The notes under the pieces: model-generated | Databases searched by the model: none | Told to the model about the DNA's origin: nothing | Seen by the model: only the letters and a program-made list of their open reading frames with translations | NCBI GenBank assembly: GCA_964421015.1 | Contig: CAYQUS010000001.1 | Span: 364,726-428,725, forward strand | Length of the DNA: 64,000 nucleotides | Source of the DNA: an uncultured Planctomycetia bacterium | GTDB taxonomy: Bacteria > Omnitrophota > Gorgyraeia > Tantalellales > Tantalellaceae | Reading direction: 5' to 3' | Made by a program: the position numbers and the translations under genes | In this document: one piece after another, positions 31,145 to 56,771 of the stretch | How positions within the stretch are numbered: the first letter of the stretch is position 1 | Layout: every line of letters starts with the position of its first letter

Positions 31145-31187
31145 CCGCGGAGAGAGTGTATTCGAGCACCGAAAACGATCCGCCGCC
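31145..31187. repeat. Conserved 43-bp intergenic element, copy 2
   Basis: ccgcggagagagtgtattcgagcaccgaaaacgatccgccgcc; 115 bp after the hflX stop and upstream of the hrcA promoter. Confidence 0.7.
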
Positions 31188-31301
31188 CTATTCGGCTTTT
31201 TGTTATTGGCGTGATGGATAGATATCGGCGTACAAAACCCTTTCGGAACCATTTTTAGCAGAGAAAAAGCAGGAAGCTGAAATGAGGAAGTTAGGTAAAA
31301 T

Positions 31302-32598: not shown

Positions 32599-33522
32599 TT
32601 AAGGCTTAAAACCCGCCTTTAAGGCTATATCCTGGGCTATCTTCTCCGTCGGCCGCTCGGCATCTATCCATTCTATCCCGTCTACAGACCTCAGCCATGT
32701 CATCTGGCGCTTGGCGTATTGCCGGGTCTTTATCTTCAATTCTTCCTTGGCTTGTTCAATGCTTATCTCTCCGAGAACATACTGTAAAACTTCACTGATC
32801 CCCAGGGCTTTCGACGCCGTTAAACTTACATCCCTTCCCATCAGGCTTTCTACTTCTTCGATAAGCCCGCCCGCGAACATCTCCTCCACTCTTTTGTCTA
32901 TCCGCCCGACAAGAACGTCTCTATTCACCTTCAAAGCGAAAAGTTTAACGTCATACTTGTCCGTAAGACCCTTGGTCTCGGTTTTCTTTTCCGAAAATGT
33001 TTTTCCTGTGAGTTTGAACACCTCGAGCGCCCTGATAACCCGGCGAATATTTTGAGGATCTATCTTCAAAGCGGCTTCCGGGTCTATTCTTTTAAGTTGT
33101 TCATAGATGAACATATACCCTTTTTCGGCGGCCTGTCTCTCCAACTGCGCGCGGAAGTCGCTGTCTTTGGGCGGCGACGGAAAAAGACCGTCTATCAGGG
33201 CCTTGGCGTAAAGCCCTGTACCTCCCGAAATAACCGGCGTCTTTCCCTCGAGTATAAGCCGGTCCACTATCCCGATGGCGGACTCGGCGAAAGATGCCGC
33301 GCTGAACTCCTCCAAGAGAGAGATGACACCCACAAGATGATGCCTTACCCTCTTCATAAGCTCAGGAGACGGAGCCTGGGTAAGTATTTCCATGCCGCTG
33401 TAAACCTGCATGGAATCACAGGATATTATCTCTCCGCCGGCTATCTCGGCAAAACGTACGGCAGTTTCGCTTTTCCCGCTGGCCGTCGGACCGAGTATAA
33501 AAATAACGGTGCGCGATGTCAT
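32599..33522 (-). CDS. miaA: tRNA dimethylallyltransferase
   Basis: 'VIFILGPTASGKSE' P-loop. Start trimmed to 33522 (MTSRT); its ATGA overlaps the RAYT stop. Confidence 0.9.
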   Translation of the reverse strand: MTSRTVIFILGPTASGKSETAVRFAEIAGGEIISCDSMQVYSGMEILTQAPSPELMKRVRHHLVGVISLLEEFSAASFAESAIGIVDRLILEGKTPVISGGTGLYAKALIDGLFPSPPKDSDFRAQLERQAAEKGYMFIYEQLKRIDPEAALKIDPQNIRRVIRALEVFKLTGKTFSEKKTETKGLTDKYDVKLFALKVNRDVLVGRIDKRVEEMFAGGLIEEVESLMGRDVSLTASKALGISEVLQYVLGEISIEQAKEELKIKTRQYAKRQMTWLRSVDGIEWIDAERPTEKIAQDIALKAGFKP

Positions 33523-34151
33523 ATATGTTTTTCCTTGCTGGGGGCAAGAAGGGACACGGCATGCCGTTCCCCCACTTCCCCCCATTTAACAGGGTTATTC
33601 ATGATATATTCACGAATTCGTGCAAGATCGGATCCGTCCCGGATAATATGTTCGTAATAATTGCGTTGCCAAAGGCACGTTCCGGATGTATTTTGGATTT
33701 CGTTTATTCGTTTTGTCACCGCGGATTTAAATGAACGCATGACCGTTGATAATGATCCGGATACCGGTTTCCCGAAACGTTCGATTTTTTCGTTACGACT
33801 TCCGTCCGATGTAGGGGCACTTCCGTCCGATGTAGGGGCACGGCATGCCGTGCCCCTACATGCATCATCAACACCATCGTTGGACAATTGATCGCCGCAT
33901 CCACCGATCATTATTATTCCATGTATGTGATCGGGCATGACAACATATTCGTCCAATTTGATATTTGAAAAATGTTCGGGAATTGCGCTCCAACATTGTT
34001 TGATGATATTACCATACACATTTAACACCATTTTGCCGTTGTTAACATCACCGAATATGCATTTGCCGTTGGCACACACCGTCACATAATACGCTCCTTC
34101 CCGGGTGTAATCGTATCCTTTTAAACGTATTGACCTGCGGCTACCCGTCAT
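33519..34151 (-). CDS. IS200-like HuH-Y1 transposase / REP-associated tyrosine transposase (RAYT) with an in-frame low-complexity insertion
   Basis: 'YYVTVCANGKCIFGDV', HuH motif 'VVMPDHIHGII', catalytic Tyr region 'WQRNYYEHIIRD'. Its start overlaps the miaB stop by 1 nt (TAATG) and its stop overlaps the miaA start (ATGA). It contains a 21-bp tandem duplication (33799-33840) and a 28-bp perfect palindrome (33832-33859). Confidence 0.7.
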   Translation of the reverse strand: MTGSRRSIRLKGYDYTREGAYYVTVCANGKCIFGDVNNGKMVLNVYGNIIKQCWSAIPEHFSNIKLDEYVVMPDHIHGIIMIGGCGDQLSNDGVDDACRGTACRAPTSDGSAPTSDGSRNEKIERFGKPVSGSLSTVMRSFKSAVTKRINEIQNTSGTCLWQRNYYEHIIRDGSDLARIREYIMNNPVKWGEVGERHAVSLLAPSKEKHI

Positions 34152-35521
34152 TACGATACAACTTCCCCCTTAAACGTATTCGGACTTGCGCCCGTGACTT
34201 GAACATTCACGATTTTCCCGATAAGATCTTCCCCTCCCGGAAAAACACAAGTAACGTTGCTTCTCGTCCTTCCCATCATCTCTTCTCCGGACATCCGGCT
34301 TTTGCCCTCGACCAGGACTTCCACCGTCCTTCCGATAAACTCTTTGTTTTTCTTAAGGGATATACTCCTCTGAAGGGCCAAAAGCTCGGTGTTACGCCTC
34401 TTTTTTTCCTCTTCCGGCACGTCATCCGCAAGACATGCCGACATTGCGGGGGGTCTTGGGGAATACTTGAATATAAAAGCGGCGTTATATCCTATTTCCT
34501 CGACCGCTTTTCTCGTAGCTTCGTAATCTCTTTCCTTTTCGGAAGGGAACCCCACTATGATATCGGTGCTAAGGCCGCCTTCCGGAACGGTCTTACGGTA
34601 ACTTTCCACTTTTTTTAGATAATCTTCATACTTATATTTCCTGTTCATAAGATCGAGTATCTTGTCTGACCCGGACTGAAGCGGAAGATGCAGGCTTTCG
34701 CATACCTTTCCGAGGTCTCTCATAGCCCTGAAAAGCGGCATACCGGCGTCCTTGGGGTGGCTCGTAACAAAACGTATGCGCTCTATGCCCCTAACCTTGT
34801 TGGCCGCCTCAAGTATATCCGGAAAAGTGGTATCGCTATTGAGCCTTTTACCGTAAGAGTTAACGTTCTGTCCCAAAAGAGTGACTTCTTTGCATCCCCT
34901 GTCCGCGAGAGCCCATATTTCCTCGAGTATGTCGCGTTTCGTGCGTGACACCTCCCTGCCCCTTACATGCGGCACAATGCAGTAGGAACAAAAATTGTCA
35001 CAGCCGTACATAATGTTGACAAAAGCCGAGAGCTCCCCTTTTGTATGCCCCGCTGAATCACCCTTGGCGGACTTGCGCTTACCTCCGAGAGCGGCCGAAC
35101 GCTCTCCGGCAATGGACTTCTCTATAAGTTCGGGAATGTCGTAAATATTTCCCGGCCCGCAGATAATATCCACCATGGGGTATTCTTTAAGCAGCATTTC
35201 CTTATGCCTCTCGGCCATGCATCCTACTACGCCTATCCTGAAATCCGGATCTTTCTTTCTACGGGAAGCCAGCTTGTGCAGGTTCCCCGTCACCCTGTCT
35301 TCGGCATGCTGACGGACACTGCACGTATTGAACAGCACAACACCGGCCTCATCCTCGTTATAGGTAAACTCATATCCCTTCCCGGCCAGAACTCCCGTAA
35401 TTATTTCTGAATCCCTGAAGTTCATTTGACATCCGAAGGTGCGCAAAAGTATACGCTTTCCATGACCCGGCTTGCCCTCGGATTTGCCTGTATTGGTGTC
35501 GTTTCGCTCTTTTTCTGCCAT
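34151..35521 (-). CDS. miaB: tRNA-i6A37 methylthiotransferase MiaB (radical SAM MTTase)
   Basis: 'RTFGCQMN' UPF0004 N-domain, 'CDNFCSYC' radical SAM motif, TRAM C-terminus. The N-terminal 23 aa overlap the recombinase 3' end; an internal TTG start (LRTFGCQMN) is possible. Confidence 0.85.
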   Translation of the reverse strand: MAEKERNDTNTGKSEGKPGHGKRILLRTFGCQMNFRDSEIITGVLAGKGYEFTYNEDEAGVVLFNTCSVRQHAEDRVTGNLHKLASRRKKDPDFRIGVVGCMAERHKEMLLKEYPMVDIICGPGNIYDIPELIEKSIAGERSAALGGKRKSAKGDSAGHTKGELSAFVNIMYGCDNFCSYCIVPHVRGREVSRTKRDILEEIWALADRGCKEVTLLGQNVNSYGKRLNSDTTFPDILEAANKVRGIERIRFVTSHPKDAGMPLFRAMRDLGKVCESLHLPLQSGSDKILDLMNRKYKYEDYLKKVESYRKTVPEGGLSTDIIVGFPSEKERDYEATRKAVEEIGYNAAFIFKYSPRPPAMSACLADDVPEEEKKRRNTELLALQRSISLKKNKEFIGRTVEVLVEGKSRMSGEEMMGRTRSNVTCVFPGGEDLIGKIVNVQVTGASPNTFKGEVVS

Positions 35522-37101
35522 TTTAACCCCTCTTCATAACACATTTTCCAAGGTTCGTTGATCTCGACCTTGACGATCTCTTTGTTTTGAATGTAAATGC
35601 CCTTAAAGATGATCCTCATGAACGTTTTGACGAGGTAATCCATCTTTTCACTGCTCGGATTGCTCCGTAGGCAAAGCAAAAAGTCCTGCGTTGCCTTGAC
35701 CAGATTCACCGCATTACGCTTTTCAAGGATCTTGATTTGAATCGACTTCACATCCTGACGAAGCTTCTTCTCCTCGTTTCTCAAAAGCTCGGCCCGATCC
35801 TTGTAGATATCAATATTGATCTTGTCCTCCGAGAAAACCTCGTAAAGTCCTTTTTGCTTCTCGATATTTCTGGCGAGATCCTTCTCTTTGCCTTCCAACT
35901 CTTCAATAATCTTATGCTCCGGCTCGGTCGCGCTAAGTTTAATGACGTCGCTCAATTCTTCGATAACATGCAAGTTTTTGCTGATGGTGTCAATGATGTC
36001 CCAAACTTGCTTAGTGAGAACGTCGGCGCGAACCGCCTTATTCGAGCAATTGACATACGACACGCCAAGCGCCGAGCACGCATACCACGGCCGCCTCATC
36101 TTTGTGCGATGATTGCATGTGATCATGAGCCCGCGGTAATTGCGGCCGCATTCATTGCATTTGACCACACCGGACAAGTGATACACATTATTCCGGAAAC
36201 GGACAACCGCATTCGTGCGGTTACGCGCTAAAAGCTTCTGCGCGGCATCGTACATCTCTTGCGTAACAATCGGCTCGTGGGCGTTGGGAACTTCGATCAC
36301 CTTTGACGGATCATTATTGACGTAGCAATACCCTTTGCCCTCGCCATTTTTTGTCTTGCGTTTCTTATCATAATGCCGCCGGTTCCACGTGATCGTGCCC
36401 AAGTAGACCTTGCTATGCAAAATATCTGAAATAAACTTGCCGTAAAACCTGCCACCTTGCCTCGCCGAAACTCCAAGATGATAATAATGCCCGGCGATCT
36501 GCGCGGTGCTCTTACCGCCTAAATATTGATCGTAAATATCTCTGACAATCTTTGCCTCTTCCGGATGAATCTCGAGCTTCTTGGTTTCTTTATTGTGACG
36601 ATAACCATACGGAGCAAAGCGAGCGCCTTGCCAATGCCCGCGCTTAACACCCATGACCATACCCGGGAATACGCGCTCAACCAGACGATTGCGCTCAAAC
36701 TCCGCGCAACTTCCAAGCATCTGGATAGCCATCTTACCTGCGCTGGATGTTGTGTCAAACGGCTCAGTCGCTGACTTATAGCCAATGCCAAGCGTCTCAA
36801 ATTCTTCCAGCAAGCCCAACAGGTCCTTGAGCCGCCTGCTCAAACGATCCTGTTTATACACCAAGACCAGATCGAACATCTTAATCCGCGCATCAAAAAG
36901 AAGCTTCTTGAGCGCCGGTCTGTCCATATTGCCGCCCGAGAAACCATCATCCATGTAAACATCCCGGCCGGACATACTGCAAACAACATCCCAGCCGAAG
37001 TTCTTCGCGTACTGCAACAGATAATTCCTCTGCACCTCCAGCGAAAAACCTTCCCGGGCTTGATCCTCTGTACTGACTCTCGTATATAGTGCGACTTTCA
37101 C
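35422..37101 (-). CDS. Large serine recombinase (resolvase/invertase N-domain plus recombinase and zinc-ribbon domains)
   Basis: 'MKVALYTRVSTEDQ' catalytic Ser; 559 aa; Cys-rich region 'CNECGRNYRGLMITCNHR'. Confidence 0.85.
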   Translation of the reverse strand: MKVALYTRVSTEDQAREGFSLEVQRNYLLQYAKNFGWDVVCSMSGRDVYMDDGFSGGNMDRPALKKLLFDARIKMFDLVLVYKQDRLSRRLKDLLGLLEEFETLGIGYKSATEPFDTTSSAGKMAIQMLGSCAEFERNRLVERVFPGMVMGVKRGHWQGARFAPYGYRHNKETKKLEIHPEEAKIVRDIYDQYLGGKSTAQIAGHYYHLGVSARQGGRFYGKFISDILHSKVYLGTITWNRRHYDKKRKTKNGEGKGYCYVNNDPSKVIEVPNAHEPIVTQEMYDAAQKLLARNRTNAVVRFRNNVYHLSGVVKCNECGRNYRGLMITCNHRTKMRRPWYACSALGVSYVNCSNKAVRADVLTKQVWDIIDTISKNLHVIEELSDVIKLSATEPEHKIIEELEGKEKDLARNIEKQKGLYEVFSEDKINIDIYKDRAELLRNEEKKLRQDVKSIQIKILEKRNAVNLVKATQDFLLCLRSNPSSEKMDYLVKTFMRIIFKGIYIQNKEIVKVEINEPWKMCYEEGLKWQKKSETTPIQANPRASRVMESVYFCAPSDVK

Positions 37102-37322
37102 TATTCTTCCTTTAGCGTCTCACGCCACTCTTTAATCTTGGCGATACACTCGTCCGTAAACACCGGCCAATCTTTGTAATCGCGCTTTGGCTTAACCCAG
37201 CCCTTGCGGATCCAATTGATCATGGTCTGCCGGTGAACGCCCAACATCTTTGCCGTCTCTGTCATGGTGTAAGTTTTCATTTTGGCATCCTCTAATGGTG
37301 CCCAGTATACCGTATTATACAA
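37101..37322 (-). CDS. Small HTH DNA-binding protein (excisionase/AlpA/MerR-like)
   Basis: 'MTETAKMLGVHRQTMINWIRKGWVKPKR' HTH_17-like; it overlaps the recombinase start. Confidence 0.6.
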   Translation of the reverse strand: MYNTVYWAPLEDAKMKTYTMTETAKMLGVHRQTMINWIRKGWVKPKRDYKDWPVFTDECIAKIKEWRETLKEE

Positions 37323-37333
37323 CCCTATACAAG

Positions 37334-37549
37334 CTATTTTATCTTCTCCACGTCATAGCAATTGATGAACATCCTCGACAATAGCTCAATCCCCTCATCA
37401 AACGATTTATGCGCCTCTTGGATTTCAGCACAAGACAAACCACGGCTTTTGAGCTTTATTTCTAAAGCCTCCCAGCCCCGCAGGGTAACCGCCTGATCCT
37501 TATTTGTGCTTGCATCCTTGTCCATTTTTCCTACTGCCCAATAGGACAT
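37334..37549 (-). CDS. Hypothetical 71-aa protein
   Basis: ORF only. The start codon is embedded in a GGACAT repeat/hairpin and no SD is visible, so it is doubtful. Confidence 0.25.
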   Translation of the reverse strand: MSYWAVGKMDKDASTNKDQAVTLRGWEALEIKLKSRGLSCAEIQEAHKSFDEGIELLSRMFINCYDVEKIK

Positions 37550-37763
37550 TCGGACATTTCAAATGTCCGGTTGTGTCCGGTTTTACTGACACACTGACAT
37601 GACTCGTGTCAGTGAATGTCAGTCAAAACACCCTCCAAAACCCATCAAATACCCAATAATTGACGCTTTTTCCGCAAAAAACGCCTATTTTGCGCCTTCT
37701 TGACCTCATTCTGACGCTCTCCCGATAACCCCATATGACATGACATCGCTTTTTGAAATTTTG

Positions 37764-37828
37764 TATCACTGACAGAGCGCGCCTCGCCCGACCCTCGGCC
37801 GACACCCCCTTCCAAGGACCCGCGAACC
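37764..37828. repeat. Direct repeat A (about 65 bp, roughly 80% identical to 57044-57106)
   Basis: Shared blocks tatcactg...cgcgcctcgcccgaccctc...ttccaaggaccc..gaacc. Confidence 0.7.
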
Positions 37829-37968
37829 GGCATCGAGCAACCAGTGACAACAATGACATTTTTTCTCACGGTTATCTTCTTACTTTCCACACTCAACCCC
37901 TTTGCTCCTTACTCTTAACCTACGAACACAATTAATGAAAATTCCTGTCATAATCGTCATAGCCGTCA

Positions 37969-40098
37969 CTAAAACGGCCGCTCCGAATAATCGACCTCAC
38001 CCTCCCTGCGGACGCGTATGCCGTCCCACCGGCGAGACGCGCCACAACGCCCCTTGTTAACCGAAGGATATTGACGCAACAACTCCCGGCCAAACATGAT
38101 CTTGCTAAGCGGCCGGTACTCACTCTCAAGACACCAGTCCCGATAAGCCACATACAAGGCGTCACTGCCCACATCCGCTTGAGCGTCTAAAACACATTGC
38201 TCCTCAACGAAAATAATGACGTTATTGTTCTCCTTGCGATAGGCGTCCTTCACGGTCTGCATGGACGCGCTCTCCTCAAAATACCCGCGCTTCCTTAATC
38301 GCGTAAGACCGTTAAGCGACCACAAGAAGATCCCGTCCAGCTCGCTGGCCACAATCTTGTGCTTTAGCTTGGGATCACGTTCCTCTATGGAAAACTGCCG
38401 ATTAAACGGAAGGATTAAAAGACGCCGGTAATACCCCTCGGTCTTATCCCCGACGCGCGGCATGTTATTGGTTGAGAAAAGAAGCTTGCAGTAAGGTTTG
38501 AATTGAAACGGTTGGCCGTATTTTTCGTCAGCGGAGATCGTATCGCCGGTCACGATCGCCTTAAACATATTGTCATAGACATTGGTCTTGGCATTGGTTT
38601 CAAGGCTGATATTGACTAATTTGTCCCGAAGCCGGGCGATGTAATGGGAATCGTTAAACTTCTCAAGCGGGATGGATGAACAATTGTCCTTGCCAATAAG
38701 CTCCTCAAGCACATACAAAACAACGCTCTTGCCGTTGGCCCCCTCGCCAAAGAGAAAAAGCGCCTTTTCATAATCATTGTCCCGGGTCAGGCAATAGCCG
38801 AAATACTCCTGCAAGAGCATGATCCGGGCCGCGTCGCTCTCAAAGATCTGATCCAGACTTTTCTGCCACAACAAACATTCGGCGTTCTCGCGGTATGTCA
38901 CATTTAGCTGATTAATGGAATAGACATCCGCCGAATGCGGCAAGAGCTTCATCTTGTCGATGTCATAAAGCCCGTTTTTGACATTAAAGAGCGTGATGCC
39001 ATTGATGATGTCCGGCTTAACAAAAGTCTCTGTCTTAAGCGCGACAAGAACATTGCGAAGCCTGCTTGCTGAAAAACCAGCCCCGCACGCGTCCTTGATC
39101 CACTTCTGCACCTCCTCGACAAACAGCGGCCGGTAACATCCGCCTTTGTATTCATAATAGGTATCAGCGAAGTTGATCAGCCGGTGATGCTTGAGAATCT
39201 CGTCAGCGATTTCATTGGCATTAACTTTTCGTGCGATAAGCAGACTTGGCCGCGACGGCGCATAGACTTCCCGGCAATCATTGACCGCTTTTTCGATGAC
39301 AGATTGTCCATATGTCCGGCCATCGCCAAAATGCTTCTCGTCCCACTTGGGCCGCATGAGTCCGGACTGGCGAAAGAGCGAATCCATCTGCCCGGCGTCC
39401 TTGCCCGTCCAGAAGGCCAGCTTATTGCATAACGCCAGATCCGCTTCGCTTTGAGAGGGATAATCGTTCTGCCACTGGCCGGAATAGAGCCGCTGAAACC
39501 TCTCCGCGTCTTTGCTTTTGGCGATCAAGGAAAGAATGTCGTCCGCGGGCACTTTATCTACATACCGGCCGAATATCTCTTTAAGCGCTTCGGTGCATTC
39601 ATTAAGCTCAGCCGGATAATTTTCAAGACGGTTGCCGGTAACGGTAAAGAATCGACCCTTCGTATAAATCTCCAAGCCGATCTTTGAAATCTTGCAGGCC
39701 CGGGCGATCTTGCCTTTACAAAGGATATGAACACCTGTGCCGCTTGGCGAATACTCGGAATATGAATTAAGCGCGCTTAAAATTTCTACCGCATACGGCG
39801 CGATCGCTCCGTCCTTGACGCAGTGGTCGATATCCACACCTACATACGGCGGCTGAAATACAAAGCCCACCCCCGCATACCCGCGCTGAAACGCAAGGTC
39901 GCTTGCAGTCGTATAATCCGTCCATGTCCTTGGATCGTTTGTTTTGGCAGGACGTCCGGTCAGGACGTTCATCGGGACCTTGTCGGTGCGGTCTTTATTT
40001 CGCCTGAGTTGATAACCAACCCAACAAGGCAATTTGAGCAATTCCTGAGGAATGACCTCTTCGATCTTTCTCTTCTCTTTTCTTCTCTCGTCTTCCAT
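37969..40098 (-). CDS. Bifunctional primase-polymerase (PrimPol) / D5_N / P4-family SF3 helicase replication protein
   Basis: 'VGFVFQPPYVGVDIDHC' Prim-Pol DxD motif; 'LFGEGANGKSV' P4/D5-type Walker A; 709 aa. Confidence 0.8.
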   Translation of the reverse strand: MEDERRKEKRKIEEVIPQELLKLPCWVGYQLRRNKDRTDKVPMNVLTGRPAKTNDPRTWTDYTTASDLAFQRGYAGVGFVFQPPYVGVDIDHCVKDGAIAPYAVEILSALNSYSEYSPSGTGVHILCKGKIARACKISKIGLEIYTKGRFFTVTGNRLENYPAELNECTEALKEIFGRYVDKVPADDILSLIAKSKDAERFQRLYSGQWQNDYPSQSEADLALCNKLAFWTGKDAGQMDSLFRQSGLMRPKWDEKHFGDGRTYGQSVIEKAVNDCREVYAPSRPSLLIARKVNANEIADEILKHHRLINFADTYYEYKGGCYRPLFVEEVQKWIKDACGAGFSASRLRNVLVALKTETFVKPDIINGITLFNVKNGLYDIDKMKLLPHSADVYSINQLNVTYRENAECLLWQKSLDQIFESDAARIMLLQEYFGYCLTRDNDYEKALFLFGEGANGKSVVLYVLEELIGKDNCSSIPLEKFNDSHYIARLRDKLVNISLETNAKTNVYDNMFKAIVTGDTISADEKYGQPFQFKPYCKLLFSTNNMPRVGDKTEGYYRRLLILPFNRQFSIEERDPKLKHKIVASELDGIFLWSLNGLTRLRKRGYFEESASMQTVKDAYRKENNNVIIFVEEQCVLDAQADVGSDALYVAYRDWCLESEYRPLSKIMFGRELLRQYPSVNKGRCGASRRWDGIRVRREGEVDYSERPF

Positions 40099-40344: not shown

Positions 40345-40830
40345 CCTACTAGCTACATACGCAATGTTTTGGGAAACTGACGAAAATATTTTCATTTTTT
40401 TGACCCTCTACTAGCTACATACGACGTTTTTGGTAAACCTGCCGGAAATATTTTCACTTTCTTCACTAATTTCACTCCCCTAAGCGTATATTCCGGATTT
40501 TTCCGGGAAGTGTCGGAACTTTCTGCCCCCTCATAGGTGATTACGCAAAATTTCCAAAGTGTCGATGCTTTTGGCCAACTATTTTTGCCTTCCATAGGTG
40601 AAGACGATATTTTTCTCAAAGTGTCGGGGCCCTCTACCATAGGTATTACGTTTTCGGGTCCAAAATTTCGCATAATCCTTCAACTTTCCTTCCCCAAGAC
40701 GTATATACGACCTTTTTTGCCAAAGTGTCCCACCCCTCACCTATTAACACGCAAAAAATCGAAAAGTGTAACACCCCTCATGCCCTCCCATAGATGATTA
40801 CAGGAAAAATCCGAAAGTGTCGGGGCTAAA
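40345..40830. repeat. Iteron-like repeat array (putative replication origin)
   Basis: Two 62-bp tandem units starting with ctactagctacatacg (40345, 40407), then at least six spaced copies of AAAGTGTC(G/C) with a CATAGGTGATTACG sub-motif (40507, 40546, 40618, 40722, 40762, 40814). Confidence 0.65.
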
Positions 40831-42123: not shown

Positions 42124-43149
42124 TTAATTACATAAATTTATATCACTAAATACCTGACACCCGCCCCTGCACACCGAGAAATGCAAACAGGTTTTGCATT
42201 TTTCGGAAGCCAGCTTATTCCGCATATTAAGAAATATCGCGCTATTCTGCCAAGCATTCACAATCGATGACCGCTTAAGATCAACACCCTTGACTTTACG
42301 CTCCATAAATGAACATGGATACAGCATTAAATCTTCAGAAATAAAAGCAGAAAAACATCCCGCTTCACAAGCTTCCACCGAAACAGGATTGTACTCAAGA
42401 TGCGTAACGATACCTGGAACACAACAACTATCAAAGCCAATCTTTATCTTGGAATTGTTGACTAGTGAAAAGAAAAAGTCAACTTCGGGAGACATTTTTA
42501 GCATATCTGAACAGCTACCTTTACCAGCAGGTTTGAATAATAAGAATATCAAAGCATTGACTCCTGCAATTTTCTTGACATCGGCTGTCAGAAGTCTTAT
42601 TGCAGACTCAATCGAATTAGCAGATAACACAAAATGAATATTTGTTTTAATTCCGGAGTTTATTAATTTGTGAAGATTGAAATAGAATTGGCTTTCCGGC
42701 TCATAAAAACTGATCGCCACTGCTCCGCAATATTTCTTGGAAGCGAGAATGATATTTTCTGTTAAGCCGTCGCCATTCGTGGTATATGAAGGAACAATAT
42801 TGTACTTATCGCGGGTTACCTCAAGAATCTTTTCAAAGCTTGAATGCTGATTCGGGTTCCCGCCACCAAGAGCTATTTGTAGGACACCGCAGTCCTTCGC
42901 CTGTCTCAAAATATATTCATAATCAGCAAATGGCATCTCTTTCCCGGCTTTTGACGACGCCCTATAGCAGAAAGAACAGCTTCTTTCACAATAGTTTGTT
43001 ATCGATACATCAAGAAGCTCGGGACCATGAGCTGAGTATATTGGTTCTGATGAATTGCTATCTTCAACGCGCGCAAAAAACCCGGTATTTTGGTTAAAAA
43101 TTACGGAATATTTTTGCTCGTCATATCTCTTAAGCAATAAAGAGTTCAT
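42124..43149 (-). CDS. Radical SAM protein with C-terminal SPASM/twitch-like Cys cluster
   Basis: 'NYCERSCSFCY' CxxxCxxC motif; C-terminal 'CKTCLHFSVCRGGCQVFSDINLC'; 341 aa. Confidence 0.8.
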   Translation of the reverse strand: MNSLLLKRYDEQKYSVIFNQNTGFFARVEDSNSSEPIYSAHGPELLDVSITNYCERSCSFCYRASSKAGKEMPFADYEYILRQAKDCGVLQIALGGGNPNQHSSFEKILEVTRDKYNIVPSYTTNGDGLTENIILASKKYCGAVAISFYEPESQFYFNLHKLINSGIKTNIHFVLSANSIESAIRLLTADVKKIAGVNALIFLLFKPAGKGSCSDMLKMSPEVDFFFSLVNNSKIKIGFDSCCVPGIVTHLEYNPVSVEACEAGCFSAFISEDLMLYPCSFMERKVKGVDLKRSSIVNAWQNSAIFLNMRNKLASEKCKTCLHFSVCRGGCQVFSDINLCN

Positions 43150-43151
43150 GC

Positions 43152-43574
43152 TTACCAGCTTGAATTTGTAGCATCAATATAAATATTTTTTCCTTCAATC
43201 TTAAAAGAGTCACAACAAACAAATGTTTCTAATGCATTTACATCTGAAGATAAAGTTCCGAAATACAAGGAATCGCCATGCGCTTTAGCACACTTTATTT
43301 TTCCGACTAAGTCTGCAGAAAAAACATCAGCAATAAAAACATCCCATTGCCTGCCCTTGTTCCAGCGATGAGAAGCAACTGCCGCATCGAACGGCTCCAT
43401 ATTTGAAGCGAACATTTTAAACAACTCTAAAAACATGGGATAAACCGGAGATTTCTTATTGATGCCAACGCATTTCATGAATTGATCCTCTGTAAATTCC
43501 TGACCTTTTTTCAGGACCACAACAAAACATGTAGATGAGCTATTTGTAACGAAATCAAACTTTATTTTCATCAC
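43152..43574 (-). CDS. Hypothetical 140-aa protein
   Basis: ORF, translationally coupled (20-nt overlap with the upstream gene). Confidence 0.4.
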   Translation of the reverse strand: MMKIKFDFVTNSSSTCFVVVLKKGQEFTEDQFMKCVGINKKSPVYPMFLELFKMFASNMEPFDAAVASHRWNKGRQWDVFIADVFSADLVGKIKCAKAHGDSLYFGTLSSDVNALETFVCCDSFKIEGKNIYIDATNSSW

Positions 43575-43983
43575 GCACTCCTAGCACAGAATTTAATATA
43601 TTCAGGGCGCCATCGGAACTCATGGTGAACATTTCTAAATTGTAATCCCCTGTAACGTGCTCTTTGCGCCACAGCAACACAGTATTCTTGTGTTTTAATA
43701 ATTTTTCCGCTCCGGCTACCGCCACATCGTCCGGAAGACAATACTTTTTTTGAAGGAATTCACTAAATGACCCGTATTCACGACTGTGATAATTTCTATA
43801 CTCATCACGCAAATCGACCGTTTCCGAAAAAAAGCAGTCATAGACTCTGCTTAATAGCCTTCCCGCAAAACTGTTGCGCCCAACCCGCATTGCTCTTAAG
43901 AATCTCCCCTTGCTGATATTCTTTACAACATGAAAAATATACGCCTTGTTATGGTCTTTCTTGTATTCGTAATGAATCATCAA
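43555..43983 (-). CDS. Hypothetical 142-aa protein
   Basis: ORF; ATGA overlap with the NACHT gene. Confidence 0.4.
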   Translation of the reverse strand: MMIHYEYKKDHNKAYIFHVVKNISKGRFLRAMRVGRNSFAGRLLSRVYDCFFSETVDLRDEYRNYHSREYGSFSEFLQKKYCLPDDVAVAGAEKLLKHKNTVLLWRKEHVTGDYNLEMFTMSSDGALNILNSVLGVRDENKV

Positions 43984-46214
43984 ACACCACCATGCATTAA
44001 CTTGACTTCGTTTATCAAAGTATCGGCTCGATTTTTATAATACTCATTGTTGCATTTCTGATATTTCTCGAATATCGCCAAGGCAGTCACTTGGGAATCC
44101 CTATACAATAAAGACAGTATATTTTTTGCCGTAGCAGAGCCAGCCTTTTCAGCAGATGCAATGAAGAATAAAAATTCTAAGGCAGGGTTATTTACATCAC
44201 CGGCTTTAATAACCTCATTTATATATTCAAAATAATGCTCCAAGCGTATCTCGTCATCTCTACCGCCATAAGTGCTTAAAAGCCTCTTAATCAAAAACGC
44301 CTCAAATTTCTCCTGGCGATCAACGTCTTGCATTGCGACCAATAAAGAAAAAAGCATTGTAATATTTAATTTTTTGTATGTCTCCGGATCATAACGATAA
44401 TAAATCAACATTTTTAGAATAAACTCGGCCTTTTCCTTAGAAGACAAATATTCTCTCTTTACCTGCTCGACATCTTGATCTGTTAGATCGGCGTCATTTG
44501 TTTCGAATAAATAATGAAGATATTTCTCTTTCCACCATCCCGTTCTCGCTAATATTTGATCAAGTTTCTGTTTACTCCGGTCTTTTTTCGAAATAAAAAA
44601 TAAATATTTACTGACCCCTTCGAACAAAGGTTTCTGCGGCAAAACCTCATCAGCGATAAATTGGGTGAATTTTTGTTCATCTTCGGGCAACAATACATTG
44701 GCCAAATAATCGGCGATTAGAAAGTCTCGGATTTCATCAAATGTAAAGCTTATAACTTCCCCATCCAACAAAACGCCAGTTTTATCAACCACATCCCTTC
44801 TAAAGAAGATGTTTTCATCTATCAGCTTAAGTATCACATTTTTATCAATCGCAGTCTTGTCGATAACAACCTGCATTGGAACATCTTTGTGTAGCCTGGA
44901 ATCAACCATGTGTTTTACGATTTCACGAATAACTTTCTGAATGGAATCATTCCCATTAGTTTTACCTTTGATCCCATCTCGAATCTGCCTATAGTATTCT
45001 TGGAAAAGGTCAAGCATGTAAACGTTCAGAATTGAACCGATGCTTCGTCCTTGATGCGCTTCGCAAAAAATACGCAATAACAAGAAATTACTGACCAGCT
45101 TCTCATAAACTCGCCCGGCAAAAGACTTCCATTCAATTTCAAAAAACGAAAGATACTTTCGGAATAACTTATCCTTCTCATGCTCCTCAAGTTTTGAATT
45201 TATGCCCTTAATCTTTTGTATTTCTGAAGCAAAAGACGCAGTCTGGATACCCTTAAAATTTAAATCATAATATTCTGTTCTGCATGTCAGAATTATTCGG
45301 ACAAACGGGTTTGAAAGCATATCTCCAATAAAAACATTCAATGCGTTGGGAAAATTTGCATCACTCGATTCATTTAAAGCATCGATAATTACAATGAAAT
45401 TTGTTTTTCTTCGCCCACATTCATGCTCAATGAATTTATTTAAGGTATCAAAATCTGTTCCGCCGGTTATTCTTTCTGTGACAAAAGCTCTCATTGAGCT
45501 GTTATTCAGTCCGTAAAAATCACCCCCGTAGAATAAGGCAACAGGTATTTCCAGCTTTAATAAAAATTCTTTTGTAAGATCGCATATTAGATTTGTTTTC
45601 CCTTGCCCTGCATCATCTAACAGCACAAGAACTCGCGACTTCAATACATTAAACTTTGCAATGGTCTCATCCATTTTCCAGCGGGCTTGCCAAGGAAAAT
45701 CATTGCTCTTCTCCGGCATGTTATTTAAAACAACGGCATTTCGTGCAATTGAAAGGTTCAATTCTTCAAGTTTAGCTTCAAGCGTTTTCAAGGAAGGGCG
45801 TGCGAGCTTCCGAAAAACCTTAAATGCAATTTTTTGTTGAATCTCCTTGTTGAGGACAGCATTTGTGTATGTAAAATCGCGTCTGTTTATATGGTCGATA
45901 AATTTATTACAGAACAAAAAAGGATGACAAAAATATCTGAGCTCCTCTTTAACTTGATTGATTTCTATATAGGAATCTGGCAGGTATTTTTTTGAATTGA
46001 TTTGTTTTTGAATTTGATCCTGCGTAAATGACAATAGTTTCTTCTGAATGGCTATATTCTGCTTTCTACGCTTAAGGCACTCTCGAATATAATTAAACGG
46101 CCATTTAACAAACCCCTTCAAGAAAGGCACCACAAGTAAAGTAATAATAAGGCCGACCACAATTGCGACGGAATTCTGCGAAATATATTGTTTTACCGCT
46201 GGCCAATCCATCAA
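43980..46214 (-). CDS. Membrane-anchored NACHT-type STAND NTPase
   Basis: N-terminal TM 'SVAIVVGLIITLLVVPFL'; Walker A 'DDAGQGKTNL'; Walker B 'FIVIIDALNESSD'; sensor-1 'RIILTCRTEY'; helical C-terminal half; 744 aa. Confidence 0.65.
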   Translation of the reverse strand: MMDWPAVKQYISQNSVAIVVGLIITLLVVPFLKGFVKWPFNYIRECLKRRKQNIAIQKKLLSFTQDQIQKQINSKKYLPDSYIEINQVKEELRYFCHPFLFCNKFIDHINRRDFTYTNAVLNKEIQQKIAFKVFRKLARPSLKTLEAKLEELNLSIARNAVVLNNMPEKSNDFPWQARWKMDETIAKFNVLKSRVLVLLDDAGQGKTNLICDLTKEFLLKLEIPVALFYGGDFYGLNNSSMRAFVTERITGGTDFDTLNKFIEHECGRRKTNFIVIIDALNESSDANFPNALNVFIGDMLSNPFVRIILTCRTEYYDLNFKGIQTASFASEIQKIKGINSKLEEHEKDKLFRKYLSFFEIEWKSFAGRVYEKLVSNFLLLRIFCEAHQGRSIGSILNVYMLDLFQEYYRQIRDGIKGKTNGNDSIQKVIREIVKHMVDSRLHKDVPMQVVIDKTAIDKNVILKLIDENIFFRRDVVDKTGVLLDGEVISFTFDEIRDFLIADYLANVLLPEDEQKFTQFIADEVLPQKPLFEGVSKYLFFISKKDRSKQKLDQILARTGWWKEKYLHYLFETNDADLTDQDVEQVKREYLSSKEKAEFILKMLIYYRYDPETYKKLNITMLFSLLVAMQDVDRQEKFEAFLIKRLLSTYGGRDDEIRLEHYFEYINEVIKAGDVNNPALEFLFFIASAEKAGSATAKNILSLLYRDSQVTALAIFEKYQKCNNEYYKNRADTLINEVKLMHGGV

Positions 46215-49180
46215 TAATACTCCCTTATATACCCATACGCCCGGTCGAAGAGGTCTTGGTCAGTGTGGAGATTATATTTGAGCAGGGTTTTGCGGAGGGC
46301 TTTTTTGACTTCGCGCTCACCGGCGGCAGTGGACTGCCAACCCGGGAATCGCACAACCTTAACAATTTCATCTATGTCATTGACTATGCGTTCCACGATG
46401 GCAGGCGTCTGATCTGTGCGGACTTCCAAGAATAACTCGGTTAGCGCCGACTTCGCGCCACGACGCTCTTCCTGAGTCTCTTCTTCCTTTTCAGCCTGAA
46501 CGACTTCCTTGGCCAGCTCGATCAAATGCTTGAGGAAATCAACGCTATTAATGAGCCCGCGCTCAACCTTATCGCGCAACTCCTCAAGTCGCTGGCCAAG
46601 TTCTTCAAATTTCGGATTCCCCTTATGCTTCCGTAGGCGATTAACAATCTCGATCTCGATTAACTTGGTCTTTTTGGCATCCTTTGTTTTCATGAGATCT
46701 TCGACCACATCCGCATCGAGTATGATCTTCTCCAAGTCATCGCTGATCTTCTCGACATGGATATGCTCATGAATTAGCTTCATCGTCTGGGCACCCAAAG
46801 CATGCCACAATAGCCTGCCGGTATCACTGGACGGCGGCTTCACTGATTCGTACACCTTGGTCAACCAGCGGTAATCCTTCTCATAAACGTTCAGAATTGA
46901 ATCCGGCGACAGTGCCTCCCAGAGAAGCGACAAATAACTGTAATCATTTGCAAAGGCATCCCGCTTGGTATTCGTATTCACACATTCCTGCGCGAGTAAA
47001 AGCCCTTCATATCCCTCAATACTTCTATCCACATTGGGAAAGTGCGCCAGACATAGGGCTATTGCCTGCTTCAGCTTGTCTTTAAGCGTCCCAATATTCG
47101 TAATGACTTGCCGCACGGATGCCTCGTCAAATTCCAGAGCCCGGGCCACGTTATCAAAAACACCGTAATAATCCACGATCAATCCATGCGTCTTGTCTTT
47201 ATAAACACGGTTTGTCCGGCAGATAGCCTGAAGCAGATTGTGATCCTTCATGGCTTTGTCGAGATACATGGCCTGAAGAATCGGCGCGTCAAAACCAGTT
47301 AAAAGCTTGGCTGTTACGATGACAAATTTGAGCGGGTCCACAGGATCACGGAATCGGTCTAACAGTTTCTCCTGCTCATCACGCTCCATTCGATACTTCT
47401 TCTTGAAGGCTTCATCGTCTGAATGGTTGGTCGAGATGACAACCACACTCTCTTCTGGCGGGATTAGCTTGTCCAACTCTTCCTTGTAAAGTTCGCACGC
47501 AAAACGATCCGGACAGACGATCTGCGCCTTGAACCCTTGCGGCTCAATCTTTTCATGGAAGTGCTGAACAATATCAGCGGCAATCTTCCGAATGCGATCC
47601 GGTGACTTCAGGAAAGCCGACATTTGTGCCGCTTTCTGAACAAGCAATGCCTTCTGCTCTCCCGACAATGTCTCTGTCATCTGGGCAAATTCGGCATCAA
47701 TGAGCTCTTTATCTACGTGGATATCCAGCAACCTCGGCTCAAAATGAAGCGGAAGTGTGGCTTTATCCCGTAACGACTCCTCAAAAGAATATCGGGACAA
47801 GTAACCGGATAAATCTTCTTCCGCGCTAAACGTTCTAAATGTATTCCTGTCTCGCTGGTTAATTGGTGTGCCGGTAAGCCCAAAGAAAAACGCATTAGGC
47901 AAGGCATTGCGCATTTTCCGGCCCAAATCACCCTCTTGTGTTCGATGCGCCTCATCAACCAGAGCAATAATATTCTCCCGATCATTCAAAAGGCCGTCTG
48001 CCTCAGCGAATTTATGCATGGTCGTTATAATGATCTTGCGCGTGTCCTGTTTTAACAACCGTTGTAATTCTTCCCGGCTATCTGTCGCCACAATATTGGG
48101 AACATCACAGGCATTAAACGTAGCCGTAATCTGAGTATCTAAGTCCACACGATCAACCACAATAAGCACTGTAGGACTTTTAAGCTCCGGCATCTGGCGC
48201 ATCTTCTGCGCGGCAAAGACCATTAAAAGTGATTTGCCTGAACCCTGAAAATGCCAAATAAGCCCTTTCTTGACCGCGCCCTCTTTGACGCGCTGGACGA
48301 TTAGGTTTGCACCCTCATACTGCTGATACCGAGCGATGATCTTAATTCTTCGGTTCTTCCGGTCAGTTGCAAAGATCGTGAAGTGCTCCAGCAGATCCAG
48401 AATCACCGCTGGTTTGAACATTGACTCAAGCGCAACCTCGATCTCTTTCAAGCCGATCAGTTCCTTTAAGGCAACATCTTTATTTGACTCATCCCGCCAC
48501 GGCCCCCAGATTTCAAGCGGCATGCGAATAGAACCATAGCGGAATGTTTTCCCTTCCGAGGCGAATGAAAAAATATTCGGCACAAATAGCTCTGGAACAG
48601 TATTCTCATAATCGTCATGAATCTGGACAGCGCCATCCAACCAAGAAATAGACGGCCGCACCGGCGTCTTAAATTCTCCGACTACAATCGGAATGCCGTT
48701 TATAAGCAAGACCATGTCCGGAATCTTGGTAACACCCCTGATAATCTTGTACTGATTGGTTGCTATGAAAACATTGTTTGAGAGCTTATCGAAGTCAATC
48801 AACCGCACCGGGACGTGCTGGTTATTTTCGCCAAAGGGCATCGTCTTCTCGCCCTGAAGCCACTTTGTGAATTCCTCGTTGGCTTTAACAAGACCGACGT
48901 CATTGACCGATAACAAAATGGCCCGAAGCTTGTAGATGACCTCGTCCGCCCGCTCCGGTATGGCGCGAATCTCGGCATTGATCCGAATAAGGGCATCTTT
49001 GAGCATCTTCTCAACCACAACCTCGCCTTCATCACGGCCAAGCTGATCGGCTGATAGATATTTCCACTGCACTGTCTCGGCATACTCTGGACGCGCACTA
49101 TCTCCAACGCCGCCAGATCCTTGACCGGTTAACTTAGATATTACATATTGCTCGATAGTATTTTGTTCGTTAAATGTCAT
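46211..49180 (-). CDS. hsdR: Type I restriction enzyme R subunit
   Basis: N-terminal nuclease region 'LINGIPIVVGEFKTP'; SF2 helicase motifs 'HFQGSGKS' and 'VDEAHRTQ'; 989 aa. Confidence 0.9.
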   Translation of the reverse strand: MTFNEQNTIEQYVISKLTGQGSGGVGDSARPEYAETVQWKYLSADQLGRDEGEVVVEKMLKDALIRINAEIRAIPERADEVIYKLRAILLSVNDVGLVKANEEFTKWLQGEKTMPFGENNQHVPVRLIDFDKLSNNVFIATNQYKIIRGVTKIPDMVLLINGIPIVVGEFKTPVRPSISWLDGAVQIHDDYENTVPELFVPNIFSFASEGKTFRYGSIRMPLEIWGPWRDESNKDVALKELIGLKEIEVALESMFKPAVILDLLEHFTIFATDRKNRRIKIIARYQQYEGANLIVQRVKEGAVKKGLIWHFQGSGKSLLMVFAAQKMRQMPELKSPTVLIVVDRVDLDTQITATFNACDVPNIVATDSREELQRLLKQDTRKIIITTMHKFAEADGLLNDRENIIALVDEAHRTQEGDLGRKMRNALPNAFFFGLTGTPINQRDRNTFRTFSAEEDLSGYLSRYSFEESLRDKATLPLHFEPRLLDIHVDKELIDAEFAQMTETLSGEQKALLVQKAAQMSAFLKSPDRIRKIAADIVQHFHEKIEPQGFKAQIVCPDRFACELYKEELDKLIPPEESVVVISTNHSDDEAFKKKYRMERDEQEKLLDRFRDPVDPLKFVIVTAKLLTGFDAPILQAMYLDKAMKDHNLLQAICRTNRVYKDKTHGLIVDYYGVFDNVARALEFDEASVRQVITNIGTLKDKLKQAIALCLAHFPNVDRSIEGYEGLLLAQECVNTNTKRDAFANDYSYLSLLWEALSPDSILNVYEKDYRWLTKVYESVKPPSSDTGRLLWHALGAQTMKLIHEHIHVEKISDDLEKIILDADVVEDLMKTKDAKKTKLIEIEIVNRLRKHKGNPKFEELGQRLEELRDKVERGLINSVDFLKHLIELAKEVVQAEKEEETQEERRGAKSALTELFLEVRTDQTPAIVERIVNDIDEIVKVVRFPGWQSTAAGEREVKKALRKTLLKYNLHTDQDLFDRAYGYIREYY

Positions 49181-56112: not shown

Positions 56113-56724
56113 CTATCTAATATCCTTTTGCTCTAACTTCTTTATTGTTTTCTCCATCCACGCCGGGGCATAACGAAGATCGCTCATCAGCTGTTTTTTA
56201 TCCTCGACCGATAATCTTCTTTTAAGTTTATTAATAATCTTGTCGTCGATGTTCTCCTGCTTTATATAACGCAAGGCTTGAATAACCAAGCCGCTCACGC
56301 GACCGGCAGTCGCCATATTCTTTGGCGATGTCTTCTTAAACATAATATGCCAGTTACCAACTTGAACCACCCGGGTAGAGCCATCTGTTAATAAAGCAAT
56401 CTTTGCCGGTACTTGGTCGGATAAGCCCAGCAAGTTGGCCGCGTATGCTCCGGAAGGTTGAATCTTAAGATTATCTTTTTCAGCAAGCGCGGCGGTAAGA
56501 CGCTCAACGCTTGGCGGCATCTCTCCAAAATCCGGATGCTTTCGTGGATAATCATAAAGCCCGCGCGCTAATCGGCGAATCTCACCAGATCGAACTAACC
56601 GGCTCAACGCCTGATCTACAGCGGCCCGATTGCCAAGATCAAGAAAATGACTAGGAGCAAACACCCAGCCTTTTTTCTTGCCGATAATCCGACGAAAAAT
56701 CTTGCTCTCAATAGATTCAGTCAT
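56113..56724 (-). CDS. AbiEi/DUF6088-family antitoxin-like wHTH regulator (no cognate AbiEii nucleotidyltransferase seen)
   Basis: 'SIESKIFRRI...GWVFAPSHFLDLGNRAAVDQALSRLVRSGEIRRLARGLYDYP' typical AbiEi N-terminal domain. Confidence 0.7.
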   Translation of the reverse strand: MTESIESKIFRRIIGKKKGWVFAPSHFLDLGNRAAVDQALSRLVRSGEIRRLARGLYDYPRKHPDFGEMPPSVERLTAALAEKDNLKIQPSGAYAANLLGLSDQVPAKIALLTDGSTRVVQVGNWHIMFKKTSPKNMATAGRVSGLVIQALRYIKQENIDDKIINKLKRRLSVEDKKQLMSDLRYAPAWMEKTIKKLEQKDIR

Positions 56725-56739: not shown

Positions 56740-56771
56740 ATGTCAGAAATAATATATCGCACTTCTGACAT
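56740..56771. promoter_or_regulatory. Inverted repeat operator upstream of the AbiEi-like gene
   Basis: ATGTCAGAA-N14-TTCTGACAT (perfect 9-bp arms), 16 nt upstream of the start codon. Confidence 0.55.

Follow-up and report, generated by a model that had tools for sequence, protein, structure and literature searches.

Two lambda-type cos-like modules in a satellite-like island integrated into the miaB gene of an Omnitrophota bacterium

Why would an integrated island carry the same non-coding module twice, in the same orientation and more than 19 kb apart? The question is raised by a stretch of 64,000 nucleotides from an uncultured bacterium of the Omnitrophota (contig CAYQUS010000001.1, positions 364,726 to 428,725 of the forward strand; assembly GCA_964421015.1), which was analysed at its full length and is called the window below. 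An earlier note on this DNA described a direct repeat of about 65 bp, each copy being preceded by a cluster of GGACAT/ATGTCC and CTGACA/TGTCAG half-sites. Three explanations were offered: duplicated regulatory regions, recombination sites of the att or res type, or junctions of tandemly inserted elements. Absent from that reading was the homology of the 65-bp unit and its flanks to the cohesive-end (cos) region that lies upstream of the terminase genes of lambda-like phages. With this homology taken into account, it is probable that each module is a cos site of the lambda type fused to a gene-proximal operator region, in a satellite island that is packaged by a helper phage. The modules most likely let the island be packed into the capsids of that helper.

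The repeat itself is real and lies at the coordinates that had been given for it. A repeat search paired positions 37764–37807 with 57044–57087 at 77% identity and a spacing of 19,280 bp, and the pairwise alignment that had been proposed as a check extended the homology to about 250 bp, from a GC-rich core through the half-site clusters. The homologous stretches, here called module A (37.58–37.83 kb) and module B (56.87–57.11 kb), are non-coding and lie in direct orientation 19,280 bp apart. A search of the window with a core profile, built from the repeat family with both window copies among its members, returned exactly two copies, both on the minus strand: copy A at 37829–37726 (E-value 1.5e-25) and copy B at 57109–57001 (E-value 6.5e-24). 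The clustering of half-sites was borne out as well. The window holds 38 copies of GGACAT where 25.5 would be expected, and in none of 100 shuffles were 38 reached, with three copies in 37544–37568 and seven in 56817–57027; a CTGACA/TGTCAG cluster is found at 37586–37621. To this extent the earlier note holds: the modules are homologous, non-coding and putatively protein-binding, and they belong to the island.

Read along the minus strand, which carries all island features given in this text, both modules show the same order. A GGGTCCT heptamer is followed by 17–19 bp of variable sequence, the GC-rich core GAGGGTCGGGCGAGGCGCG, a conserved AGTGAT with a run of A, a pentamer iteron in two copies some 50 bp beyond the core, a spacer of about 110–130 bp and then more iterons of the same type. 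In module B, the cosQ-like heptamer lies at 57094–57100 and the core, a candidate cosN, at 57058–57076, followed by the conserved CAGTGATA at 57044–57051. The doubled iteron ATGTCCATGTCCAT (57014–57027) stands at a distance equivalent to that of R3 in lambda and is of the type found in the commonest phage group. Further on comes GGACAT-N4-GGACAT-N5-ATGTCCA (56866–56892), in which sites one and two have their homologues in the right-hand iteron pair of the cos region in phages. In module A, the cosQ-like heptamer lies at 37815–37821. The core (37778–37796) is a 19-mer identical to that of module B, again followed by CAGTGATA (37764–37771), and the doubled iteron at the R3-equivalent distance, ATGTCATGTCAT (37735–37746), is of the TGTCA type. 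Two consecutive arrays of identical geometry complete this module. The first, O1, reads TGACA-N5-TGACA-N7-TGTCA-N3-TGTCA (37586–37621) and is conserved in more than 15 related satellites; the second, O2, reads GGACA-N5-GGACA-N7-TGTCC-N3-TGTCC (37544–37578) and ends about 20 nt before the start of the gene orf71. The array at 56866–56892 in module B is similar to them. Within the core, the best dyad matches at 8 of 11 positions and is centred in GGGCGAGGCGC. For brevity, the cos-like parts of the two modules are called cos A and cos B.

The likeness to lambda extends to sequence and spacing. The lambda sequence reads TTTACGGGTCCTT and then, from the left end 23 nt after GGGTCCT, GGGCGGCGACCT directly followed by CGCG; the modules read (G)TTTACGGGTCCTTGG...GGTCGGGCGAGGCGCG, with the core GAGGGTCGGGCGAGGCGCG 17–19 nt after GGGTCCT. 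The heptamer is exact, and 17–19 nt before the core, in 105 of the 111 distinct modules, including both window copies. AGTGA follows at +7 after the core in all but one of the 111, and the first doubled iteron starts 49–50 bp from the GGTCGG of the core in 100 of 108 modules. In an alignment of both window copies with lambda, two phages and one other satellite, GGGTCCTT was invariant. It is known that cosQ has 7 bp and is highly conserved (PMC4669245), that R3, the first binding site of the small terminase (TerS) in lambda, lies at bp 50–65 (PMC9026076) and that the I2 segment of lambda contains poly-dA/dT (PMC4856287), which is paralleled by the A-run between core and iterons in the modules.

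Further copies of the module were sought in public data by an exact-pattern search with the 19-mer GAGGGTCGGGCGAGGCGCG, which gave 15 IMG/VR contigs, 118 metagenome stretches and 55 genome stretches. After 37 chance hits in GC-rich genomes had been removed, 158 true copies with conserved flanks were retained, 129 of them distinct. They come mostly from Omnitrophota, including the complete genome of Ca. Velamenicoccus archaeovorus. The concern that the repeat might be a common element unrelated to the island was thus half borne out: the module is widespread, with 129 distinct public copies, but these always lie in phages or satellite-like islands, and in the window it occurs in the island only.

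The phage-type copies, 34 of which are distinct, reveal the position of the module in a phage genome. In all of them, it takes up the intergenic region that immediately precedes a ParB_N/N6_N4_Mtase gene; this downstream gene is constant, whereas the upstream gene varies and falls into six clusters. In the phage contig L014, the module is followed by the ParB/methyltransferase gene, a TerS gene (phrog_57, 3.3e-16), a gene for a large terminase (TerL) of the gpA type (GpA_ATPase 5.6e-78, GpA_nuclease 2.6e-65), a lambda-family portal gene and the gene of capsid protein E. Because lambda-like phages keep cos upstream of the terminase genes, the phage-type modules stand in the position of cos. The distal 120 bp of the module are far more conserved than the adjacent coding sequence. 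Among deposited phages, the closest TerL shows 42.6% identity.

The rest of the copies are found in surroundings that resemble islands. Like module A, 21 distinct copies follow a P4-type primase gene, and 13 copies precede a DUF6088/AbiEi-like gene, as module B does. Five copies are directly followed by a small-terminase gene (phrog_57, 1.3e-19). In the element L173, the order is primase, module, TerS, a 121-aa open reading frame (ORF), serine integrase and miaB, a layout that reads as a cos-terS arrangement inside a satellite. Another satellite starts with the module at its left end, and an L001-type element has no second exact 19-mer on its contig. Phage-type and satellite-type copies co-occur in the samples Ga0302252 and Ga0209507. 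Both copy types of the window were found on one further contig, Ga0172371_10002825, where the B-type and the A-type lie 19,159 bp apart; since this is an 88%-identical relative, its spacing is not independent evidence.

If the modules are cos sites, their iterons should be read by TerS, and the iterons do vary with it. The core is common to all modules, while the doubled iterons are of the types TGTCCaTGTCC, TGTCAaTGTCA, TGTCAtGTCA, TGTCAgTGTCA, TGTCGtGGTCG, TGTCAtGGTCA and TTGCATGTTCA. The type tracks the N-terminal winged helix-turn-helix (wHTH) of TerS: TGTCCaTGTCC is found with the '...SPRMIRRYVQQGMP' type, TGTCAtGGTCA or TGTCGtGGTCG with '...YRTVYRWKKDGMP'-like types, and TTGCATGTTCA with the satellite TerS type. 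A switch is seen in L178, from an Omnitrophota metagenome-assembled genome (MAG; CAWDSS010000010.1, 720001–728000), whose TerS is chimeric, with a DNA-binding domain of the L019 type and a C-terminal half of the L014 type (TGTCC group); it is a natural analogue of the hybrid TerS of lambda and 21. The iterons of L178 are TGTCGtGGTCG, whereas its neighbouring initiator has nearly the same wHTH as the initiators of L028, L161, L168 and L023, all with TGTCC iterons. The iterons thus go with TerS and not with the initiator, which argues against a replication origin. In the 13 AbiEi-linked modules, the left and right iteron pairs change together (TGTCC with GGACA, TGTCA with TGACA), as is expected for the sites of one protein. 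As to the window, the iterons of cos B match those of the phage group itself, and cos A has TGACA/TGTCA iterons. The covariation of iterons and TerS is good but not conclusive evidence, since the independent specificity switches are few and TerS and cos are physically linked.

The element that carries the two modules was delimited by junction mapping and gene content as an integrated satellite-like island of 21,823 bp (35430–57252). At the left junction (57242–57263, border between 57253 and 57252), the host side reads ACTTTCGGCTG and the element side GCCGGTGGCAG; at the right junction (35420–35440, border at about 35430 and 35429), the element side reads ACCTTCGGATG and the host side TCAAATGAAC. 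On the host side of the left junction, the displaced native start of MiaB is still encoded as a stub (57253–57360) that reads MEDKF...KVFIKTFG up to the border and W beyond it. The last 100 bp or so of the island (35420–35521) encode a replacement N-terminus, MAEKERND...RILLRTFG, which continues into CQMN on the host side and whose frame overlaps the 3' end of the integrase gene. Both junctions share the core TTCGGnTG, and the insertion lies inside the conserved TFGCQMN codons at the 5' end of miaB. The same left junction is found in the related element L060, and homology at the right end between elements of different hosts stops at 35421. Related elements in other Omnitrophota occupy the same miaB site, and the same design, by which the N-terminus is replaced, is found in L001, L033, L060 and L173.

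The matching joint was found in a contig of 2224 bp from Hainich groundwater (L106, ERZ1292640). At about 1900–2224 of this contig, the 3' end of the integrase gene is joined through CTTTCGGATG directly to GCCGTTG... and on to a B-type module. The order is the integrase 3' end, TTCGGATG abutting the GCCGTTG arm, a terminator-like hairpin and a B-type cos, the element arm being GCCG(G/T)TG.... This is the attP junction that a related satellite is expected to have when excised as a circle or arranged in tandem. The hairpin, with its T-run, is seen directly upstream of the B-type cos at 57110–57150 in the window, at about 1700–1760 in L060 and at about 2110–2160 in L106, its position being kept and its sequence not. 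It was not reported by a simple terminator scan. In the circular form, such a hairpin would terminate the integrase operon just before cos B.

From left to right along the minus strand, the island consists of the left junction, cos B, the AbiEi-like gene, RhuM, defence cargo, DUF5659, primase, cos A, orf71, the HTH_17 gene, the serine integrase and the right junction, followed by miaB. The word border, which the earlier note had used for both modules, suits only copy B, which lies within the island at about 150 bp from its left junction; copy A has an internal position, with 2.35 kb between it and the right junction. What the note had called an orf71-xis-int operon does lie where it was placed, yet it is better named orf71, HTH_17 protein and large serine recombinase. 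The last of these (35422–37101) has the domains Resolvase, Recombinase and Zn_ribbon_recom, and its cluster at 90% identity has 72 members, mostly from Omnitrophota MAGs. The HTH_17 protein (37101–37322) is a MerR-like winged-helix protein of 73 aa (Pfam HTH_17, 4.5e-6). Its PHROG matches are to an excisionase (1.2e-5) as against TerS phrog_57 (2.8e-4), and BLASTP against a satellite TerS gave an E-value of 0.19, a generic wHTH similarity only. It could be an excisionase or a DNA binder like the DNA-binding domain of TerS. The gene orf71 (37334–37549) has no family match and occupies the slot directly downstream of cos A, in which related satellites have the small terminase. On the other side of cos A lies the gene of a P4-family primase with a D5-type helicase (37969–40098), assigned by domain match. 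The DUF5659-primase operon is closely preceded by a tandem pair of 59-nt direct repeats with 78% identity and a period of 62 bp (40346–40466), which overlap a 93-aa ORF; they are kept in L001 and L033 and could be an origin or a promoter/operator of the replication module.

The first gene after cos B (56113–56724) encodes a winged-helix protein of the DUF6088/AbiEi family (Pfam; PADLOC AbiEi, 1.6e-74). In the pair that had been given as AbiEi-RhuM, RhuM stands, and its partner is named more exactly as DUF6088/AbiEi_4. After RhuM come, in gene order, a metallophosphoesterase and RadC, the genes for restriction-modification, the Avs2-like and pVip-like proteins, small ORFs without assignment, DUF5659 and the primase. 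The cargo at 42124–46214 and 50330–53286 includes a pVip-like radical-SAM protein beside an Avs2-like NTPase and two small ORFs, and a type I restriction-modification system with two tandem hsdM genes. Among the island ORFs, several of which are small and without assignment, no matches to capsid, portal, tail or TerL proteins were found (Pfam, PHROGs, PADLOC). Its serine integrase, HTH protein, P4-type primase and defence cargo, together with the lack of capsid, tail and terminase genes, mark the island as a phage satellite. The SatelliteFinder marker set for P4-like satellites comprises psu, delta, sid, alpA, epsilon, integrase and primase. There is no family match to psu, delta or sid in the island (Pfam, PHROGs); only the primase and the AlpA-like HTH are shared with this set.

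The surroundings of the island are those of a chromosome. The flank on the integrase side is ordinary, with miaB, an IS200-like gene, miaA and hflX and, further on, dnaK, dnaJ and lptD; the IS200/Y1-transposase-like gene (33519–34151) lies between miaA and miaB. On the far side are genes for SET-domain, GIY-YIG, transpeptidase and methyltransferase proteins. Neither tRNA nor tmRNA genes are present in the window, so there is no tRNA-linked att site. Palindromes that resemble repetitive extragenic palindromic (REP) elements, GGTGCCTGGCAC...GTGCCAGGCACC, occur in intergenic regions at 2330, 3118, 10002, 14843 and 31081, possibly as part of a system with a REP-associated tyrosine transposase (RAYT). 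Also outside the island, a 44-bp direct repeat with 91% identity is found at 16401–16444 and 31145–31188, 14.7 kb apart.

How would the two sites be used? What the sequences show is the homology, the anatomy of the modules, the covariation and the att junctions; for cleavage, packaging and the identity of the helper, we infer the following course. A lambda-like helper of the group represented by L014 would infect the cell or be induced, and the island would excise by its own serine integrase and replicate with its own primase-helicase. The helper TerS would bind cos B at its GGACA/TGTCC iterons, which agree with those of the helper itself, and the gpA-type TerL of the helper would nick the core. 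Packaging would then run towards the AbiEi-like gene and terminate at a downstream cosQ plus core. In this scheme, cos A, with the same cosQ and core and with TGACA/TGTCA iterons, could end packaging, or it could start packaging under another specificity. For termination, lambda requires cosQ and cosN and can do without a matching cosB; helpers also package chromosomal segments that run from cos to cos (PMC4669245). Since lambda termination is independent of cosB, cos A could act in termination even if it is unrecognised by the helper TerS. In the circular form of the island, the two cores are 2.5 kb apart one way and 19.3 kb the other way, and the possible packaged lengths would be 19.3, 21.8, 41.1 and 43.6 kb and so on.

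A division of labour between the two sites may be put forward as a tentative and rather doubtful extension. Here, cos B with its helper-type GGACA iterons would initiate packaging, cos A would terminate it or serve a second helper or an adaptor of the island, and the AbiEi-like regulator and the helper TerS could compete. As a dedicated terminator, cos A would allow a defined cos-to-cos segment of 19.3 kb to be packaged straight from a monomer; even the chromosome might serve as the source, much as in the dilysogen experiments of Feiss. Alternatively, cos A could admit a second helper specificity or an island-encoded adaptor, orf71 and the HTH_17 protein being in the slot in which relatives have TerS. 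If this extension is true, the shared GGACA half-site would link the sensing of the helper, the expression of island genes and interference with helper packaging.

Several points weigh against a role in packaging. There is no helper phage in the window, and no deposited phage matches the module by blastn. The island encodes no recognisable TerS, Rpp or capsid-size factor (Pfam, PHROGs), and not one of the 34 phage-type copies has the iteron type of cos A, TGTCATGTCA. That the 19-mer does not vary is a matter of ascertainment, as it was the search pattern, whereas the conservation of the flanks is not. The reading of the heptamer as cosQ depends on the assignment of GGGTCCT at lambda 48473–48479 to cosQ, reportedly made by Wieczorek & Feiss 2001. 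No physical DNA ends are seen at the core. The contig ends near it fall at many positions, with offsets of 0, 1, 3, 12, 28, 31 and others after the core and of 14, 20, 24, 35, 41 and 74 before it; because they are scattered, and three contigs of one MAG overlap by 55 bp, they are taken as assembly breaks at a repeat that are uninformative on cos ends. Moreover, with the cores only 2.5 kb apart on one side of the circle, cutting both of them always would separate the integrase segment from the rest. Finally, a promoter or operator role also fits, as both modules lie upstream of operons, oriented as in the phages.

This last point leads to the alternative that survives best, namely that the modules are only transcriptional control regions, made of promoters and operator arrays for winged-helix proteins of phage or island origin, copied in front of two island operons and of the phage packaging operon, and with no part in packing the island. 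For the gene-proximal part, such a role is indeed indicated. The part next to the AbiEi-like gene (56740–56839) holds direct GGACAT repeats (56817–56839) and the palindrome ATGTCAGAA...TTCTGACAT (56740–56771), and a promoter-like TTTACT-17-TATATT at 56779–56751 overlaps this palindrome. The proximal four-site arrays likewise have the dyad geometry of operators. In L199–L202 (9600–10000), which are AbiEi-led islands adjoining a transpeptidase gene, the cosQ-core-iteron segment is cleanly deleted, while the flanking 'ttttttatgc', the proximal GGACA sites and the palindrome remain. In AbiEi-linked modules with cos iterons of the TGACA type, the proximal sites stay GGACA, and the proximal repeats and the palindrome are kept with the AbiEi-like gene in 13 contexts, independent of the cos type. 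The proximal part is separable from cos because it is kept where the cos core is deleted and is unchanged when the cos iterons change. The proximal GGACAT palindromes at orf71 and at the AbiEi-like gene are therefore most likely operators of the island operons.

Of the three explanations in the earlier note, that of duplicated regulatory regions is thus the one that survives in part: it fits the gene-proximal GGACAT/ATGTCC palindromes, which have the same geometry at orf71 and at the AbiEi-like gene, and it missed the rest of the module, which is cos-like. The arrangement resembles the autoregulated operators of the AbiEi family, in that a winged-helix gene of this family is preceded by inverted and direct repeats with the palindrome over a promoter-like site, and it is a putative operator by this resemblance. 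Unlike in AbiEi systems, the partner gene here is RhuM and not an AbiEii nucleotidyltransferase, and the GGACA half-site is found in helper-type cos repeats as well.

As an account of the whole module, transcriptional control is unlikely. It leaves unexplained the heptamer GGGTCCT, presumably the cosQ of lambda, and the lambda-like spacings. The tight link to terminase genes, the covariation with the DNA-binding domain of TerS and the satellites that have their own TerS directly after the module are not explained either. In addition, no sigma-70-like promoter was found in module A, and the distal 120 bp are much better conserved than the coding sequence beside them.

It is appreciably less probable that the modules are replication origins of the iteron type, as in the pri-rep-ori layout of Staphylococcus aureus pathogenicity islands (SaPIs). 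Such origins would suit the 26 phage-type copies that follow an HTH_36/replication-initiator gene (phrog_270, 1.6e-12), the 21 satellite copies that follow a primase gene and the two iteron groups that flank a spacer of about 110–130 bp. However, as described above for L178, one initiator wHTH occurs with two iteron types, and it is TerS that changes with the iterons. The same module is also kept where a phage-type copy has another gene upstream (a membrane protein, a 98-aa ORF), copy B follows no replication gene, and a cosQ match has no place in an origin. The tandem 59-bp repeat upstream of the primase operon (40346–40466) is, besides, an alternative candidate for an origin or promoter. As the iterons track TerS and not the initiator, the origin was rejected.

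The two other proposals of the earlier note, att- or res-like recombination sites and junctions of tandem elements, are very improbable, even though direct repeats inside an island with a site-specific recombinase bring them to mind and tandem islands do occur in relatives (L200; Ga0302252_1000381). The true junctions lie elsewhere, at about 35430 and at 57252 in the miaB TFGCQMN codons, with both host half-genes recognisable, and in the metagenome contig L106, the matching attP connects the integrase end with the left arm, modules A and B not being the partners. Nor do long direct repeats arise from serine recombinases. The unit of primase, module A, orf71, HTH and integrase is conserved as one block, at 85–90% identity in other genomes, which speaks against a junction within it, and none of the 129 distinct copies is an A/B hybrid, with primase upstream and an AbiEi-like gene downstream. 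A side observation on tandem islands comes from L200 (13934–16039), in which a second copy of the transpeptidase gene is followed by an intact module and an AbiEi/AbiEii pair; this suggests tandem accretion of islands.

That the core, which is strongly conserved, G-rich on the transcribed strand and overlapped by short ORFs in both copies, encodes a structured RNA or a small peptide is the least credible proposal and was rejected on both counts: nothing in Rfam reaches its gathering score, 20 diverse copies folded together by RNAalifold gave −5.8 kcal/mol with a covariation term of −0.06 and no compensatory pair, and no reading frame is kept because the copies differ by indels of 1–2 nt.

The cos-site reading, if correct, has several implications. 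In the literature searched, no paper on satellites in Omnitrophota was found, and the island and its relatives would represent apparently undescribed cos-type satellites, together with lambda-like helpers, in a phylum of mostly uncultured, ultra-small bacteria. The layout of lambda cos appears to be conserved far outside the phages of enterobacteria. The pattern GGGTCCT-N17-19-GC-rich core-iterons may serve as a sequence handle by which cos sites and satellites can be found in metagenomes, and the combination of one core with varied iterons and swapped N-terminal domains of TerS offers a natural data set on packaging specificity. The island also rebuilds the N-terminus of an essential-type gene, miaB, and carries a large defence cargo (type I restriction-modification, Avs2-like, pVip-like, RhuM and AbiEi-family proteins). 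The novelty lies in breadth and variation and not in a new mechanism, as the comparison with known systems makes clear.

The closest parallel for the modules themselves is the cos region of lambda and also of 21, N15, phi80 and gifsy-1, with which they share the order of sub-sites. The heptamer GGGTCCT, with TTTAC...TT flanks in many modules, precedes the GC-rich core, which resembles GGGCGGCGA...CGCG, by a similar distance. As in lambda, some 50 bp separate the end from the first TerS-type repeat, further repeats follow in the opposite orientation, and in the phages terS and a gpA-type terL come just downstream of the module. The core is common while the repeat type differs between specificity groups, as between lambda and 21 (PMC4669245, PMC9026076). 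Unlike in lambda, the host belongs to the Omnitrophota, the repeats are 5-bp units in doublets and not R sequences of 16 bp, and a ParB/methylase gene stands between cos and terS.

With the satellite phage P4, the island shares a primase-helicase of the P4 family, a small protein of the AlpA/HTH_17 type beside the integrase and a cos that matches that of the helper. P4-like satellites carry defence genes as cargo, and so does the island. Unlike P4, no homologues of psu, delta and sid were detected in it, the integrase is of the serine and not the tyrosine class, there are two copies of cos, and the helper terminase would be of the lambda gpA type and not of the P2 type.

Phage-inducible chromosomal islands, PICIs for short, offer a close match in design. 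EcCICFT073 of E. coli has two functional cos sites with helper-like cosQ and cosN and a different cosB (PMC6092414, PMC6739421). Like EcCICFT073 and the cos-type SaPIs (SaPIbov5, and SaPIbov4 with two putative cos sites), the island is integrated, lacks structural genes and has a predicted cosQ and cosN like those of its helpers. The cos-rpp layout of PICIs (PMC9026076) compares with cos A-orf71/HTH_17 here and with cos-TerS in the relatives. Unlike PICIs, the island of 21.8 kb uses a serine integrase to enter the 5' coding region of miaB, of which it replaces the N-terminus, and it has a P4-family primase. Its cos B keeps helper-type repeats, whereas the cos sites of PICIs have no recognisable helper cosB, and no homologue of Rpp was detected. 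Since two functional cos sites are already known in EcCICFT073, the island would represent a new family of a known kind, a cos-type phage satellite whose principle is established for P4, SaPIbov5 and the PICIs of E. coli.

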